Shown here piece by piece: positions 9,816 through 57,041 of a stretch of 64,000 nucleotides of DNA. The translations under genes and the position numbers were made by a program. The DNA is from a virus: IMG/VR virus record IMGVR_UViG_3300031566_005149, positions 16,158 through 80,157 of that record; one strand, written 5' to 3'. How positions within the stretch are numbered: position 1 is the stretch's first letter; the number at the start of each line of letters is the position of its first letter. A model generated the notes under the pieces. The model saw only the letters and a program-made list of their open reading frames with translations, was not told the DNA's origin and did no database searches.

Positions 9816-10364
9816 TTATAAACTCTTCTCCCGTTTTTTAATCTGAGAAATTACATCACCCCAATCACCATTTTTTATAAGAACAACTTTATCATCAATA
9901 TAAAAATCGGCAATAATTTTTTCTCCTGTTATACGATCAAAATATATTCCATAGTTGATCAAATAATTTTTTATATTTTGAATCTCGTCTTCGAGATCGT
10001 ATGCAAATGTATCAGCATTTTCCTGACTAGCTCTAGTTGTGAAAATGACAATTTCATACCCTTTACTCTTCAAATATTCTATAGATTTTTTAGCAGCTGG
10101 AAATGGATCATCATCCAACTTACCATCATTCCAACCAGACTTAGCTGAATATATAGTCTTATCAAAATCTATCATAACTCTACCGAATTTTCCACCCCTT
10201 TCTTCAAGAGGTTTTGGATTTTCGTCGTTTTCGTCATCATCTCTATTTCTCATGATTGGAGGAGTTGGGGAATCAATAGCAAAACCACCTACAGCTTCAT
10301 CAGCTATAGTTTTCAATTCATCAAAAAATTCAGATAATTGTTTTGCTAGATCCTGTATATTCAT
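9816..10364 (-). CDS. HAD-superfamily phosphatase-like protein with acidic N-terminal extension
   Basis: IDFDKTI (motif I), IVIFTTR (II), K..ADFYIDDK (III/IV). Confidence 0.8.
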   Translation of the reverse strand: MNIQDLAKQLSEFFDELKTIADEAVGGFAIDSPTPPIMRNRDDDENDENPKPLEERGGKFGRVMIDFDKTIYSAKSGWNDGKLDDDPFPAAKKSIEYLKSKGYEIVIFTTRASQENADTFAYDLEDEIQNIKNYLINYGIYFDRITGEKIIADFYIDDKVVLIKNGDWGDVISQIKKREKSL

Positions 10365-10389
10365 GTATGAATCTCCATTGAGTCTATAT

Positions 10390-10405
10390 CTTTTAATTTT
10401 GTTCT
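10390..10405 (-). promoter_or_regulatory. Putative late promoter (AGAACAAAATTAAAAG)
   Basis: Variant of the recurrent AGAACAAA-N3-TAAAY motif upstream of a - strand gene. Confidence 0.55.
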
Positions 10406-10428
10406 ACCTTTTTACCGAAGTCTCATAT

Positions 10429-10448
10429 CTATATATATTAATAAGTGA
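10429..10448 (+). promoter_or_regulatory. Putative early promoter CTATATATATTAATAAGTGA
   Basis: One of 8 near-identical intergenic copies, all + strand, each upstream of an SD and ORF. Confidence 0.7.
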
Positions 10449-10494
10449 GCAGACGTATTGACTGCTTAATTTTTTATTAGGAGGTGAAGTCAAT

Positions 10495-10788
10495 TTGAAA
10501 TTTGTCTTACCCAACAATTCGAAAAATAGTTTGATAAAAGCAGCAAACCTCGTTAAAGAAGGTTTTGCGAAATGGGAAAAAATGACAAAAACAAAACGAA
10601 ATATTATATCGGGTGTTTCGTTTGTTATGACAGGTCTTTTTCTTCCAAAAGCTATGCTCATGCTCGTCGTTTCATCGGTTTATGCTGGTAGACATATGTA
10701 CCTGAATGGTGAAGTTGAAAGAGCAGCAGAGGAAATCGTTATAAAAACAGACTGCTCCTGTTCAGAGCCCGAAGTCGGACATCTGTAA
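10495..10788 (+). CDS. Small membrane protein in an oppositely oriented mini-cassette
   Basis: SD AGGAGGT, TTG start, hydrophobic segment, followed by a hairpin. Confidence 0.7.
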   Translation: MKFVLPNNSKNSLIKAANLVKEGFAKWEKMTKTKRNIISGVSFVMTGLFLPKAMLMLVVSSVYAGRHMYLNGEVERAAEEIVIKTDCSCSEPEVGHL

Positions 10789-28434: not shown

Positions 28435-29307
28435 TCATTTTCCATTTTTACATTTCATATCCTGATACCCACATTCTTTTTTTCTATGAACTCCTCTATG
28501 GCATTTCTTACAGTAAGTAATACATTTATCAATATCAGCACTCTCAAGTGGTTCCCATCTAATTCCTTCAATATGATGACAGTGCAAAGATTTTATAAAA
28601 CCACACTTCCGGCAAGTCCAGTTATCTCTTTCAAAAACCAGATGCCTAAGTTGTGGTTGAACTTCTCTTGATAAGTATTTTGTCTTATTTTCTTCGGCTG
28701 AATATTTTTGTTTTCTATATATTGAGCATTCCTTTTTACATTCATTACTACAATATAATCTATACTCTCCACCGACTGTTCCATTTAAAGCATATATTCT
28801 GCATTGAATTTCACTTCTTTTTGGTGTATACCACCTACCACAATATGTGCATGTAACATCTAAAATTTTAGAATTCTCTTTATTTCTTTTCACCTTTTCA
28901 GCATATTTTATTTGACTTGCATAGGTATTATATAATGGTATATTCTTTTGATAATAACCACCAGACCAATTAGGATGTTTTTTTCCTTTCATTTTTCCTT
29001 TTCGATTTCTTCTTATTAATCTTTTGGTTTCTTCCGACCGAATGAGACCATGGCTCGGACTGTTTTCTCCTCTAAAACGCCCAATTAAAGATTTACTAAT
29101 TTTTTCTTTCGTTTTATCTGAAGGATTTCTACTTGTTAAATAACACGATTTGCTACAAAAATTGCTAATTTTATGAAAGTACGTTAAATATGGATTTCCA
29201 CATTTATCACATTTATCTATATAAACATAAGCATGTTTGTTTTCAAACCATCTATTTGTTTTTAAGTCATATTTTAATTTATTTAAATTATCCCAACATA
29301 TTTTCAT
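28435..29307 (-). CDS. Free-standing HNH endonuclease with NUMOD3 repeats
   Basis: SEETKRLI, HPNWSGG; VFERDNWTCRKCG...LHCHH...CKKCH. Confidence 0.85.
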   Translation of the reverse strand: MKICWDNLNKLKYDLKTNRWFENKHAYVYIDKCDKCGNPYLTYFHKISNFCSKSCYLTSRNPSDKTKEKISKSLIGRFRGENSPSHGLIRSEETKRLIRRNRKGKMKGKKHPNWSGGYYQKNIPLYNTYASQIKYAEKVKRNKENSKILDVTCTYCGRWYTPKRSEIQCRIYALNGTVGGEYRLYCSNECKKECSIYRKQKYSAEENKTKYLSREVQPQLRHLVFERDNWTCRKCGFIKSLHCHHIEGIRWEPLESADIDKCITYCKKCHRGVHRKKECGYQDMKCKNGK

Positions 29308-29310
29308 AAA

Positions 29311-30378
29311 CTATTTATCATATCCTTTTTCTTTTATAAATGTTTTCCATTTAGTTTCATATTCCTCATCTTTAATTATATAGCTATCATATTTCCATTT
29401 TTTAAAAAAACCAGTACGTTCACTATATGGACCAAATTCTTTTCTTTTAGAATTATCATATATCGGTTTGTTGCCGTAATATTCTAAATTTGAATACCGT
29501 CTGTTGAAAAAACTGTCCTCCCCAGTATCATAATACATATACAAATAACGATAATCACCTGTCAAATAAAATTTATATAAAGTATCTTTTTCATGTTTGC
29601 TAAAATATTCTCCATCGTTCCTCATGTCAAAAAAATTTTTTGATAAAGGATTCAAATGTTGTTGACATATTACCTTCATTTCGCCACCAAGATTTCTGAA
29701 TCCAACCAACTCCTTCCAAGTGCTCGGTTGATTGTAACTTGCATAATGATCAATCTTTCCAGCATATTTATGACCCTTCGGAAATAAGGGTTGCATTCTC
29801 GGGACAATGTTTTTAATGTTTCTCTCTTTTACAAAGTCCCTCAATAAAACTTCGGGGCTGTAACTTTCAGGGATATTATTCTCTAACATGGCTATGACAT
29901 AATCAACGAACATATGAAATACCCAACATTTCATTATCATAGCGGCTGTATGTAATGTGCTATCTGCCGTAACACACATCATATCTCCATCATTGCGTTT
30001 AACCACATCTTTAAGTTTATCAACATTCTCTGGCTTCTCCCAAATGCAGTCACCGTTCGTAATTATAACAGCCTCAATATTGTTCAGGGGCCTGATGAGT
30101 CCACCCGCGAGGACCACATCATACAACCACCCTATTCGCTTCTCAGCACCGTATGTGATAGGTTTTGTTACTATTGAATGTGGTATATTCATTATATTAT
30201 CATGTGGCCAGGATTTATGTGAATCATATGATAGTATCACGTACTTTCCAGTTTTCATATAATTGTTTAATGTTGCCTCTAAGAACATGCGATGTCCAGG
30301 ATGGCTAGTGACTATAATTGCTGTATCTGTTCTTAGGATAAAATCATTTTGTTTGTATTGTTTAGATGTTGCTACCAT
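29311..30378 (-). CDS. Putative GT-A-fold glycosyltransferase, paralog of 26517-27479
   Basis: AIIVTSHP..RMFL, ITNGDCIWEKPEN, TWKELVGFR shared with paralog. Confidence 0.5.
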   Translation of the reverse strand: MVATSKQYKQNDFILRTDTAIIVTSHPGHRMFLEATLNNYMKTGKYVILSYDSHKSWPHDNIMNIPHSIVTKPITYGAEKRIGWLYDVVLAGGLIRPLNNIEAVIITNGDCIWEKPENVDKLKDVVKRNDGDMMCVTADSTLHTAAMIMKCWVFHMFVDYVIAMLENNIPESYSPEVLLRDFVKERNIKNIVPRMQPLFPKGHKYAGKIDHYASYNQPSTWKELVGFRNLGGEMKVICQQHLNPLSKNFFDMRNDGEYFSKHEKDTLYKFYLTGDYRYLYMYYDTGEDSFFNRRYSNLEYYGNKPIYDNSKRKEFGPYSERTGFFKKWKYDSYIIKDEEYETKWKTFIKEKGYDK

Positions 30379-33706: not shown

Positions 33707-34064
33707 TATCTAAATCCTCCTTCTCTTTCCACTTTCCATTTTCTTTAACCTCTATCTTTAAATTTTTCTCGTCCATCATTTTTTCGACTTTTTCCTCTAT
33801 CTTTACACCCTCAATTATTTCCTGTGCTTTTCGATTAACCCATATTCTAAACTTTGTACTATTAGATAATCTCTGCATGGCTATCTTTTTATTTATATGT
33901 TGATGTCTGTGTTCACGACTTTCGCCTCTCGCTCCAGATTCTCTATGAATTATTCGAACTCCCGAATCAGTTTTATTCTGATGTTGTCCACCCTTACCAC
34001 CAGACCTGAAAGTCTGAACCTCGAAGTCTTTCTTGGTTAGTGTGAATAATTTTTTCTTTACCAT
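33690..34064 (-). CDS. RF-1 domain GGQ peptidyl-tRNA hydrolase (ArfB / release-factor-like, no codon-recognition domain)
   Basis: FRSGGKGGQHQNKTDSGVRIIH...RHQHINK; only 124 aa. Confidence 0.92.
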   Translation of the reverse strand: MVKKKLFTLTKKDFEVQTFRSGGKGGQHQNKTDSGVRIIHRESGARGESREHRHQHINKKIAMQRLSNSTKFRIWVNRKAQEIIEGVKIEEKVEKMMDEKNLKIEVKENGKWKEKEDLDNDTTV

Positions 34065-54025: not shown

Positions 54026-55356
54026 ATGGTTAGTTTTAGTGAAGAAGCAAGATCTAAAAAATTTAAAGAAAAACCAGGATATAAAGATCAAGTCCTATAT
54101 GCATTTTGGGATTATGACATATGTCCATATATTTTAGGTGGGATTATTACAGAGTTTACAGATAGTGGAAACATAAGAGCCAAAGGGTATGATGGAATGA
54201 TCTTTAAACCAATAGCAATTCTTCCAGGAGAAGCAGGATCCAGGGCATTGTCTAAAATAAAAATTCTCAGTGCAAAACTTCGAACAGCCGAAGACACAAA
54301 TAGAACCTTGTTTGCAGATGCAGCAAGGAAAGCGATAAACCTTCCACCAGAATACAAGGAGAAAACCGAATCTGCTCAGAGAATAGCAGAATATCTTTCA
54401 TTGGATGTTAAAAAACTTATAGGGGGGAGTAATGTCTAAACATGCAAAGAAGATACAAGATTATTTAGAGTCTGGTGGTTGTCGGTGTATCAATCCAAAA
54501 TGCCGGTCTTACAATATAGAATCTATGATGGAGAATATTAATGATGGGGGTGCCCATCAGAACATTAGTTGCAGTGATTGTGAATCAACATGGACCGACT
54601 TATATACATTGACGGATGTTTTTAATGTTAAAATCACGGGAAAGGAAATTACCGATGGAGAAATATCCGTGGAGAGTTGAACATATCTCAATGACAGACA
54701 AGTTTTACAATAACTTAAAAAGACACATGAACATGCGACACACGCTCGGTGATATTACAGGTTCAGAAGCCGATATTTTAATTCTGCATATCATCCATGC
54801 AATTGATAATGATGATGCTTCCTTTGGTCTATATTTAAGAACACTGGGTGAGGCTGAAGAATATACAAAGGAAAAATTGAAATGAGACAAATACAGGTTA
54901 GCATGGAACCACATATTAGTTCTATCGGAGATGAAGTTGATCTTCATGAATTGAAGATAGATATTATTGGTGGAGATGGAATGGTAGAGGATGCAACCTT
55001 ATTCTATACGACAGAAGAACTCACACAAATACGAGATACAATAAATGTATTTCTGAACCTTTGGGGGTAATATGTTTAGCTATCAAAGAGCTGAAGAATT
55101 TAGACACCTAGAAGAAATTAACATATACTATACATTCTATAAACCAACAGCAAAAAAATGGGGTTATAAAGGTTTTAAGTATGATACATATATTCTAGTG
55201 GAAGATGGAACAATGCAAAAAATGAAACTAGAAAAACAGCAAGTTGTATGGTGTCCAAACGAAAATGATTTCACACAGCTATTGAAGCACTGGAGTCGCC
55301 ATAAAGAATCGAAATACAAACCGACACCCGAACCACCAGATTTTTATGACATATAA
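54026..55356 (+). CDS. Run of small hypothetical ORFs (54026-54439, 54432-54680, about 54655-54885, 54882-55070, 55072-55356)
   Basis: Tightly packed with overlapping start/stop codons. Confidence 0.65.
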
Positions 55357-55370
55357 TTTTTTCATTTACG

Positions 55371-55386
55371 AGAACAAAAGTAAAAT
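55371..55386 (+). promoter_or_regulatory. Putative late promoter heading the amber operon (AGAACAAAAGTAAAAT)
   Basis: Close variant of the late motif, 20 nt before the leader ATG. Confidence 0.55.
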
Positions 55387-55405
55387 TCACTTAAGGAGCA
55401 GAATC

Positions 55406-55489
55406 ATGAAATATTTCAAACCTCGCCCTATCTAGATTACCTCTTGGATCTCATCCAGGGGTCCTCCCATTCACTATAATAAACCATAA
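55406..55489 (+). CDS. Leader peptide MKYFKPRPI(TAG)ITSWISSRGPPIHYNKP with in-frame amber and RGPP motif
   Basis: SD TAAGGAG at 55392-55398; TAG 55433-55435; RGPP 55457-55468; TAA 55487-55489. Confidence 0.75.
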
Positions 55490-55544
55490 TGAGATCAATA
55501 CGCAAAAATAAACCACTTTAATGAATCAAACGGAGGAAACAAAC

Positions 55545-55943
55545 ATGACTGAAATAACTTACACTAAAGATCAACGAAAAGTATTTAAGGAACTGAAGAT
55601 GAAGATTAAGGCTGAACTAAACAATTTGGTGATGAGCATTCGCCTCGGTAAGCCTTTGAGAAAACCGTGTGTGTACAATATATCCATTGAAGAACACAAA
55701 ATAATGTTTGGGGGTTTAGACCACAATCGGGTTACATATAGACATGCACATATTGCATATTGCATGTTCTTCAACCGTACGCCATATGCAATGATCGAGC
55801 ATCCAAGAAAAAATAACAAACCATCGTCCTACATGATCGAAGACTATCAAAAGAATTGGGAAAATCAATTAAATGATGCTATTAGTATGATAGCGGCAGT
55901 GGAAAGTGAAGAAGATGAAGAAGCGATTGTGGAGGCTGCATAA
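55545..55943 (+). CDS. Conserved phage hypothetical protein (RHAHIAYC...RTPY.MIE motif)
   Basis: SD GGAGG; alternative in-frame start at 55521. Confidence 0.8.
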   Translation: MTEITYTKDQRKVFKELKMKIKAELNNLVMSIRLGKPLRKPCVYNISIEEHKIMFGGLDHNRVTYRHAHIAYCMFFNRTPYAMIEHPRKNNKPSSYMIEDYQKNWENQLNDAISMIAAVESEEDEEAIVEAA

Positions 55944-55944
55944 C

Positions 55945-56256
55945 ATGAACCCAAAACCAACGTAGGACAAACTATTCGTAATCATACGAAAAGATCTATC
56001 CCACTCTCAGAGAGCTGTTCAAGCTGGCCATGTGTTAGCAGAGTATATGATACACAGCTCTCTGGAAGGCTGGCAAAATACAACCCTTGTATATCTAGGA
56101 GTTAAGGGGTTGAAACAATTGGAAAATCTAAAATTCAAATTGGAATGTGAAGGTATCCAGTTCGTCGAGTTTAAGGAACCTGATATAGGCTACGAAACGA
56201 CAGCTATAGCCAGTGATGTTGATTGCGAGATCTTTTCTAAAATGAATCTCATATAA
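55945..56256 (+). CDS. Pth2-like peptidyl-tRNA hydrolase interrupted by in-frame TAG at codon 7
   Basis: SD GGAGG, ATG 55945, TAG 55963-55965, then KLFVIIRKDL...AVQAGH, EF.EPDIG.ETTAIA; the ORF track shows only the part from 56032. Confidence 0.85.
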
Positions 56257-56264
56257 AATGGTGT

Positions 56265-56339
56265 GGGCCAGTAGCTCAGTGGTAGAGCGGGAGACTCTAA
56301 ATCTCTTGGTCGAGAGTTCAAAACTCTCTTGGCCCGCCA
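56265..56339 (+). tRNA. Amber suppressor tRNA (anticodon CUA), CCA encoded
   Basis: GGGCCAG/TTGGCCC; GCTC-AGTGGTA-GAGC; GGAGA-CTCTAAA-TCTCT; GAGAG-TTCAAAA-CTCTC; G73-CCA; followed by T-run. Confidence 0.93.
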
Positions 56340-56367
56340 TTTTTTTGACTAAAAGGTACAGTAATAT

Positions 56368-56387
56368 CTATATATATTAATAAATGA
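56368..56387 (+). promoter_or_regulatory. Putative early promoter
   Basis: CTATATATATTAATAAATGA. Confidence 0.7.
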
Positions 56388-56422
56388 CAGACGGATATCA
56401 ACCTTTTAAAAAGGAGATCGTC

Positions 56423-56512
56423 ATGGAATATCTCAAAGACTGGAAAATATGGTTGTTGTGTATCGTGGTAGTCCTAATCATCAAATTTCCGATAGTGGAC
56501 TTCATCAAATAA
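56423..56512 (+). CDS. 29 aa hydrophobic peptide MEYLKDWKIWLLCIVVVLIIKFPIVDFIK
   Basis: SD AAGGAG; first ORF after early motif. Confidence 0.65.
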   Translation: MEYLKDWKIWLLCIVVVLIIKFPIVDFIK

Positions 56513-56560
56513 ATCGAAGGGGAGTGTGTAATTCCTCCCCATAGCTTTTTTAAAAAGGAG

Positions 56561-57041
56561 ATGGAGATGGGTGAGAAACAAGAAATAGCAAATGAAATAA
56601 AAAAATTGGTGGCAATGGTTAATGCATATGTCAATGAATTTAACCCGACTATTTTCGATATGGGTGATATCAGACAAATGCTTACCGATGATGTTCATGA
56701 GGATTCTCTCGGAGAGTTTATCTATTCATTAGAAGCAATATGGAGAGGAAGGTGATGAGATGAAAAAATTAATTATAGCAATCGGTATATTAATTGTATG
56801 TGGCCTGGAAAATATCGGACATTACTTCGGATTTTGTTTTCACGGCTGGACAGCAACTATCCTCGGAAGCTTGGGCGTATTTGGAATTGGATTGTACTCC
56901 AACAGTGCGATTGTGTGGCTCAACATGAAAAGAAAAGGTGATCACTCACATAAATGCGATCACGAACAGAACCATGTAGAGGAAACCATCACACCTGACG
57001 CTTACTGCAAAAATCATCTTGGGGGGAAAGTCGTCAAATGA
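56561..57041 (+). CDS. Two small ORFs (56561-56755; membrane protein 56760-57041)
   Basis: SD-led ORFs. Confidence 0.65.

Follow-up and report, generated by a model that had tools for sequence, protein, structure and literature searches.

The leader and its neighbours

The window analysed here, a stretch of 64,000 nucleotides from an IMG/VR virus record of ~80 kb (completeness estimated at 23% by CheckV) whose sequence is present in soil metagenomes, carries on its plus strand a leader mini-ORF followed by two small genes and a tRNA gene. The mini-ORF (55406..55489) reads MKYFKPRPI-UAG-ITSWISSRGPPIHYNKP-UAA, and an SD sequence, AAGGAG (55394..55399), lies 6 nt ahead of its ATG. Codon 10 is an amber triplet (55433..55435) followed by a purine (A); if this UAG is read, the ORF has 27 sense positions, and codons 18–21 (AGG GGT CCT CCC, 55457..55468) spell RGPP, a putative arrest core that places within a small ORF the R-[A/G]-P-P motif typical of RAPP-like arrest peptides. 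The 17 residues ahead of the core (MKYFKPRPI-x-ITSWISS; 3–15 in most relatives) contain no hydrophobic segment, and the leader has neither the N-terminal signal peptide nor the TM segment through which monitoring substrates undergo force-dependent release. The leader TAA (55487-55489) overlaps ATG 55489 of a second small ORF without an SD (ORF2, MRSIRKNKPL, 55489..55521), whose TAA in turn overlaps ATG 55521, so that UAAUG overlaps stand at both of its ends. The whole leader element measures ~160 nt. Direct reading of the sequence confirmed every coordinate and peptide given for the TAG, RGPP, the TAATG overlaps and MRSIRKNKPL in the preliminary description.

RGPP at 55457-55468 is the sole RGPP in the six-frame translation of the window, a count within chance (1 against 0.45 R[GA]PP expected), and the looser pattern TAG-x(1-8)-[RK]G?PP was likewise found within chance in six frames (3 against 1.5 in shuffles). 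Because the pattern is within chance on the window alone, its significance rests on conservation in related loci. A sigma-70-like promoter candidate (TTTTCA-16-TAAAAT, 55359..55386) precedes the leader; it is weak, matching at 9/12 positions, and since shuffled sequences match as well, we consider it a candidate only. If used, this promoter would place the leader SD close to the transcript 5′ end. In a related locus (L012, 2400-2425), a TATAAT box stands 8 nt before the ATG of the leader MT-TAG-KFKPP-stop, whose transcript may therefore begin directly with the leader; the weak TAAAAT of the window (55381-86) is placed in a similar way. The leader region was identical across contigs of four soil-metagenome runs, at least one of which is probably the source run, and microdiversity was therefore uninformative. 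No RNA run was among the listed public runs containing the sequence.

The first gene after the leader (55545..55943) encodes a 132-aa all-helical protein with an R-H-x-H-I-A-Y-C motif, predicted by AF2 (pLDDT 93) to form three long helices. Its start was placed at ATG 55545, which has GGAGGA (55532-55537) eight nt upstream and aligns with the MT(F/Y)KELK N-termini of its homologues. No family was found for this protein in Pfam or PHROG, and comparison of the model with the PDB returned only generic helical hairpins (Foldseek E>1; VIA-align Z ≤6.8, which is the noise range for helical proteins). The family nevertheless comprises 1,867 cluster representatives at E≤1e-3, among which R-H-x-H-I-A-Y-C is nearly invariant. 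In the window and in loci L002-L051, its members almost always adjoin a tRNA(CUA) gene. A tblastn search with three family members against 50,697 GenBank phage records gave no match, and DNA-level comparison with GenBank phages returned tRNA-sized matches only.

The second gene (55945..56256, 103 codons) was assigned a PTH2 fold and carries an amber of its own at codon 7 (TAG 55963-55965), with a Thr codon before it, a G after it and no later start. A profile of 11 homologues matched archaeal Pth2 structures in the PDB (E 2.8e-5), and the top 13 Foldseek matches of the AF2 model (pLDDT 92) were all Pth2/Bit1 (TM 0.62-0.73, probability 1.0), whereas the single-sequence Pfam score against PTH2 (PF01981) was 15.4, below the cut-off of 23 bits. 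Profile similarity and the predicted alpha/beta fold thus agree with the earlier suggestion that the gene downstream of the leader encodes a Pth. In the family alignment, R15, D17, Q22, H29, D80 and T86 are invariant.

In related loci, the PTH2-fold gene usually lies between the leader and the tRNA(CUA) gene, and in one of them (L007) it also starts with an early amber (MSIS-TAG). The PTH2-like gene is found in cultured jumbo phages as well. Acinetobacter phage vB_AbaM_ME3 (KU935715.1, 165170-168403; L054) carries a tRNA(CUA) gene, a small gene and a PTH2-like gene starting MT-TAG, although the deposited annotation places the start of this CDS after the TAG. No RGPP leader was detected at the ME3 locus by the filter used, and in RAS14, Xoo-sp13 and fHe-Yen9-03 no tRNA(CUA) or leader was found within 1.5 kb. 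ME3 is a possible laboratory system for amber-gated PTH2 expression.

The last element is a putative amber-suppressor tRNA gene (56265..56339), with the anticodon CUA, an encoded CCA and a T-run thereafter (ARAGORN; Rfam tRNA, 67.7 bits). It lies 776 nt downstream of the leader, and in most related loci a tRNA(CUA) gene is present in the fetched flanks, within 1.5-2.5 kb. Across loci L002-L051, acceptor stem, discriminator base, length and encoded CCA of the tRNA(CUA) genes vary greatly, a diversity that suggests either different amino-acid identities or repeated replacement. The tRNA gene is downstream in the same apparent unit, which counts against gating by this tRNA: the initial suppression has to rely on transcripts made while their ORFs remain untranslated.

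Conservation of the leader in related phage loci

IMG/VR was searched with the helical protein, with the PTH2-like protein and with alignments of each, and 35 distinct related loci were obtained. A mini-ORF led by an SD, with one or more in-frame TAGs and an arrest-type ending, precedes the helical-protein gene in 34 of them (16/16 in the first batch and 18/19 in the second); the only locus without the leader, L024, is on a short contig and has a different context. The preliminary description had called for homologous leaders to be checked for a TAG and R-[AG]-P-P conserved in frame, and a TAG followed in frame by R-x-P-P or a related ending was present in these 34/35 loci. The relatives' leaders have one to three in-frame TAGs and then an ending 1–9 codons later, of the form R[GASD]PP, [RK]PP-stop or R[GS](Q)P-stop, as in MKKMYWKGNWA-TAG-VNRPP-stop, MFK-TAG-IKVPP-TAG-VRGPP-TAG-FLL, MNS-TAG-NSARAPPQ-stop, ML-TAG-VFRPP-stop and MT-TAG-ISGFT-TAG-IRGPPYI. 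Very short ORFs of the type M-x-UAG are common among them. The leaders could not be aligned at the nucleotide level, yet their design is kept.

The codons used in the leader cores vary for Arg (AGA, AGG, CGT, CGA, CGC), Gly (GGT, GGA, GGC) and Ala (GCG, GCA, GCT), and this synonymous variation points to selection at the peptide level. RGPP, RAPP, RSPP and RDPP all occur as cores, with G, A, S or D as the middle residue, and these are the residues that mutagenesis found to be arrest-competent or partly permissive at this position (PMC12992588). In a crude but unbiased test, CCNCC fell in the three frames relative to the nearest upstream TAG in the proportions 25:10:4 (the first being in frame), as against 31:27:36 in the background. 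Of 30 leaders, 22 have CCT as their first Pro codon, giving CCUCC, and this preference points to dual selection, on the peptide and on an anti-SD. Several leaders with CCA or CCG Pro codons, whose anti-SD lies elsewhere, still keep [RK]PP.

The surroundings of the leader ambers are also biased. The base after the TAG is a purine in 42/44 cases (p=2.5e-9), and the codon before it encodes Pro or Thr in 20/44. A purine after TAG and a Pro or Thr codon before it are contexts held to favour suppression over termination; work by Bossi and by Miller and Albertini, both in 1983, reportedly established this role of codon context, with a purine after TAG favouring suppression. The amber of the PTH2-like gene in the window, with Thr before it and a purine after it, has the same context as the leader ambers.

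TAG is an ordinary stop codon in the window

We also assessed whether TAG has been reassigned in this phage. The 67 non-overlapping ORFs of at least 100 aa in the window end with TAA (47), TGA (13) or TAG (7). Two long ORFs appeared to contain an internal TAG (28435-30378 and 9816-10679), and in each the TAG separates distinct genes with their own SD and ATG. At 28435-30378 (minus strand), a 355-aa gene ends with TAG and an HNH endonuclease gene begins 3 nt on in the same frame with its own SD and ATG; suppression of this TAG would join the two. At 33739 (minus strand), MESGKRRRI-TAG-IM... stands ahead of a 366-aa ORF, whose real start is probably the ATG led by an SD two codons past the TAG, an amber-dependent N-terminal extension being possible. 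The only gene of the window with an early amber and no alternative start is the PTH2-like gene of the leader operon. Code 15-like recoding, with many genes containing in-frame TAGs and TAG never used as a terminator, is therefore not what the 64-kb window displays, and we rejected global TAG recoding: 7/67 long ORFs end with TAG, and apart from the leader, the PTH2-like gene alone has an in-frame TAG. Because the phage uses TAG as a normal stop, the leader TAG is a gate rather than a sense codon, and the suppressor has two evident targets in the 64 kb, namely the leader and, in the same operon as the tRNA, the PTH2-like gene.

Predicted sequestration of the downstream SD

Folding of the leader RNA predicted that the SD of the helical-protein gene (GGAGGA, 55532..55537) is sequestered (P(unpaired) 0.00-0.06 in free RNA). 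In both the MFE and the centroid structure it pairs with an anti-SD, UCCUCC (55462..55467), which lies within the Gly-Pro-Pro codons of the putative arrest core. Between the UAG and the Pro codons, a 9-bp hairpin, CUCUUGGAU-CUC-AUCCAGGGG (55441..55461), is predicted to begin 6 nt past the gating UAG and to abut, or stack on, the anti-SD helix. Its position is reminiscent of structures that stimulate read-through; it is specific to the window, the gap between TAG and motif in the relatives being too short to hold one. A second CCUC in the 5′ arm of this hairpin (55439-42) can also pair with the SD.

The same arrangement was recovered in the related loci: MFE folding pairs the SD ahead of the helical-protein gene in each of the 16 that were curated, with a median P(unpaired) of 0.01 as compared with 0.61 for 42 control genes of the window that are led by an SD (Mann-Whitney p=1.4e-7); the window SD falls in the lowest accessibility class among those 42 genes. 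In the 16 loci, the SD partner is formed by the Pro-Pro codons or starts 0–12 nt after them, within the footprint of a ribosome stalled at PP. Pairing of SD and anti-SD is the most consistent structural feature among the loci, and both of its sides are nearly invariant.

When a ribosome footprint was imposed at PP in silico, SD accessibility rose in 15/16 loci. In the window, the modelled P(unpaired) of the SD rose from 0.06 in free RNA to 0.25-0.55 with a ribosome at RGPP, depending on the footprint assumed (0.25 for the standard one), and remained at 0.06 with a ribosome terminating at the leader UAA; one model gave more SD opening with a ribosome at the UAG than at RGPP. Re-pairing by the second CCUC behind the stalled ribosome accounts for the modest opening predicted. 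As in RAPP-like arrest peptides, the leader is thus co-oriented with a gene whose SD is predicted to be occluded and opened by a stall, the opening being modest for the window alone.

The fold evidence from the window is weaker than that from most relatives. Its anti-SD:SD helix, of only 6 bp, spans a loop of ~64 nt, and its local fold energy is no better than that of shuffled sequences (z −0.28 and −1.41). Of the structures covering the SD at 55532 that the preliminary description proposed to look for, pairing with UCCUCC was predicted; the energy of the fold did not set it apart, and because the local fold is non-significant, the case does not rest on the window's own structure. No intrinsic terminator or attenuator was found in 54800-56700, and Rfam recognized only the tRNA among known RNA families in 55300-56450. 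The trp/his type of transcription attenuation, with its terminator and antiterminator, is accordingly absent there; the structure that is conserved involves the SD.

The preliminary description had also read the TAATG overlaps as a coupling relay, in which the TAA of ORF2 delivers ribosomes to an in-frame ATG of the next gene (55521). That ATG is in frame with the helical-protein gene, but the likely start is ATG 55545, as judged from its SD and from the N-termini of homologues. ORF2 sits in the loop that the anti-SD:SD helix closes. Only 2/16 curated loci, the window and L019, were found to have an AUG that overlaps the stop of the leader and begins an ORF reaching the gene start; in L019, the second ORF (2397-2483) runs from the leader UAAUG through the SD hairpin to the start codon of the regulated gene. 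Such limited conservation makes ORF2 an optional accessory or a product of chance. The relay did not hold up as a designed element, given its occurrence in 2/16 loci, the lack of an SD at ATG 55521 and the SD left paired by a ribosome terminating at UAA, and we regard it as incidental or at most accessory.

Discussion

We propose, with a probability of about 0.7, that the leader is a translated, UAG-gated arrest peptide in which a suppression-activated stall would unmask the SD and switch on the two genes downstream, the UAG probably being read through by the phage's own UAG-reading tRNA encoded just downstream. The core of the preliminary description, that the UAG gates RGPP and that suppression is converted into downstream expression, has gained support from the 34/35 loci, the tRNA(CUA) gene, the predicted SD sequestration and the use of TAG as a stop. 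Four steps of this proposal are inferred from sequences and models: translation of the leader, suppression by the tRNA, arrest at RGPP in a short context, and an effect of arrest that activates the genes rather than silencing them. In the OFF state, with no charged tRNA(CUA), ribosomes starting at AUG 55406 would terminate at UAG 55433, and the helix between UCCUCC (55462-67) and GGAGGA (55532-37), stacked on the hairpin at 55441-61, would hide the SD of the helical-protein gene. In the ON state, tRNA(CUA) (56265-56339) would decode the UAG, and the ribosome would go on for eight codons before arresting in the way known for RAPP/RGPP peptides, its P-site tRNA carrying Arg-Gly-Pro and its A site occupied by the second Pro codon. 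The footprint of the stalled ribosome would then cover the anti-SD and free the SD, so that the helical protein would be translated; the close-following PTH2-like gene would be co-translated, with a second read-through needed at its codon 7.

RGPP has been described as the strongest and most robust arrest core, refractory to EF-P and tolerant of varied N-terminal contexts (PMC12992588), and this robustness and tolerance make arrest in so short a peptide plausible. A point against the proposal is that the nascent chain would be only 20 residues long at arrest, without a signal peptide or TM segment, and that no mechanism for its release is known. As a more tentative extension, which we hold to be possible but doubtful, the locus could form a closed loop that monitors the state of the genetic code in the manner of SecM-SecA: the stall would report suppression, and the induced pair of helical and PTH2-fold proteins would act back on it. 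The feedback could consist of the release of RGPP-arrested peptidyl-tRNA, or of the hydrolysis of peptidyl- or aminoacyl-tRNA(CUA), and would hold suppression at a tolerable set-point while the phage and its host still use UAG as a stop. That stalled peptidyl-tRNA from RGPP arrest serves as substrate for the PTH2-like enzyme, along the lines suggested in the preliminary description, is speculative.

The same UAG-gated arrest leader might have a different output, the stall or the induced products limiting expression rather than activating it, whether through mRNA cleavage or decay, through titration of the suppressor, or through a homeostat based on negative feedback, with suppression being lowered by the PTH2-like enzyme. 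The modest opening of the window SD upon stalling would fit such an output, as would a robust, EF-P-refractory arrest (PMC12992588) with no evident release here; in known monitoring substrates, moreover, it is the downstream product that relieves arrest, and suppression without a check should come at a cost to a phage in which TAG is a stop. We nevertheless consider it unlikely, because activating leaders (SecM-secA, ApdA and others) have this very architecture, in which the SD is sequestered by an anti-SD located beneath the stall site, and it is here both conserved and specific, and because stalling is predicted to raise SD accessibility in 15/16 loci. It is quite improbable that the mini-ORF simply ends at the UAG and that the RGPP codons are an untranslated RNA anti-SD, the arrest-like peptide being a by-product of CCUCC. 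The frequent CCT as first Pro codon (22/30 leaders), which makes CCUCC complementary to GGAGG, would follow from this, and the consistency of SD:anti-SD pairing and the many very short M-x-UAG ORFs agree with it; however, an RNA element has no use for a frame shared with the AUG and the TAG, which is kept (frame test; 34/35 loci), or for a synonymously varying codon for Arg or Lys located two or three triplets upstream, or for arrest-permissive G, A, S or D at the middle position. Nor would it account for leaders that retain [RK]PP with CCA or CCG codons and an anti-SD elsewhere, or for the adjoining tRNA(CUA).

That the relay is the main route, with read-through ribosomes reinitiating at AUG 55489, translating ORF2 and handing over at 55521 while stalling is secondary, we judge very improbable. 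The UAAUG overlaps do exist, a ribosome that terminates on ORF2 at 55519-21 would sit on the SD region and unwind it, and L019 has a comparable second ORF that ends on the gene's start codon, but the relay is missing in 12/16 curated loci and trivial in 2 more, ORF2 has no SD, homologues do not start at the position of ATG 55521, few ribosomes would get past a strong RGPP arrest to the UAA, and the conservation of the arrest core would be left unexplained. Finally, TAG could be a sense codon throughout the phage, as in code 15, and the leader an ordinary, ungated arrest peptide; a tRNA(CUA) is present, and recoding of TAG together with suppressor tRNAs is well documented in phages (bioRxiv 10.1101/2021.08.26.457843). 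The termination of 7/67 long ORFs by TAG and the restriction of internal TAGs to the PTH2-like gene, in 64 kb of a genome estimated to be ~23% complete, make this extremely improbable.

A UAG-gated arrest leader that activates its neighbours would share several features with ApdA, ApdP, ApcA, the Streptomyces lividans uORFs and SecM, the last with RAGP in place of RAPP or RGPP (PMC7897499, PMC10987492, PMC10951233, PMC12992588). In all of these, as is predicted here, a small upstream co-oriented ORF is combined with a structure on the downstream SD that a stall opens, and the leader has in common with the RAPP/RGPP peptides a C-terminal R-[AG]-P-P core at which the ribosome is expected to arrest when the second Pro codon is in the A site. 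The known peptides, tens to hundreds of residues long, are monitoring substrates of the secretory or membrane type in which the motif is always reached and arrest is released by pulling force, whereas the leader is phage-encoded, would be 20 residues long at the stall point and has no targeting signal. In addition, access to its motif is conditional on one to three in-frame UAGs, so that the sensed variable would be nonsense suppression. Neither phages nor stop-codon gating is mentioned in the RAPP/RGPP arrest-peptide papers (PMC7897499, PMC10987492, PMC10951233, PMC12992588). The [RK]PP-stop and R-x-P-stop endings of relatives can be likened to the stalling of TnaC and other C-terminal Pro-stop peptides, with peptidyl-tRNA(Pro) in the P site, although without tryptophan sensing; the six codons beyond RGPP mark the window leader as belonging to the elongation-arrest type.

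The closest engineered counterpart is the amber switch of Liu et al. 2011, in which, as outlined in a review (PMC6412442, section 6), a UAG in the tna or trp leader lets an orthogonal tRNA(CUA) and an unnatural amino acid control downstream expression. According to the same review, translation past the UAG is needed for the ON state, as proposed here, and multiplexed UAGs sharpen the OFF state; some relatives of the leader likewise have two or three TAGs. The synthetic switches covered there act on transcription, through masking of a rut site or through Rho, and use TnaC, whereas the leader is natural, occurs in many phage lineages, is apparently translational and controls genes beside the tRNA. 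In recoded phages, code-change modules consist of suppressor tRNAs, aaRS and release factors, and neither a leader nor an arrest motif or PTH2 gene is described in that work (bioRxiv 10.1101/2021.08.26.457843). The leader operon has in common with these phages a phage-encoded suppressor tRNA used for timing gene expression, but its phage is not recoded, and the leader and the PTH2-like gene are its only evident TAG targets in 64 kb. A full-text literature search returned no description of a natural UAG-gated arrest leader.

If the proposed mechanism is correct, the leader would be a natural counterpart to the amber-leader switches that synthetic biology has engineered. Known arrest peptides respond to secretion, to small molecules or to antibiotics, and stop-codon read-through, that is, the decoding state of the cell, would be a new variable for them to sense. 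The unexplained suppressor tRNAs of large standard-code phages would thereby acquire a conserved target, and they would be tied to a PTH2-fold enzyme and to the so far unannotated family of helical proteins.
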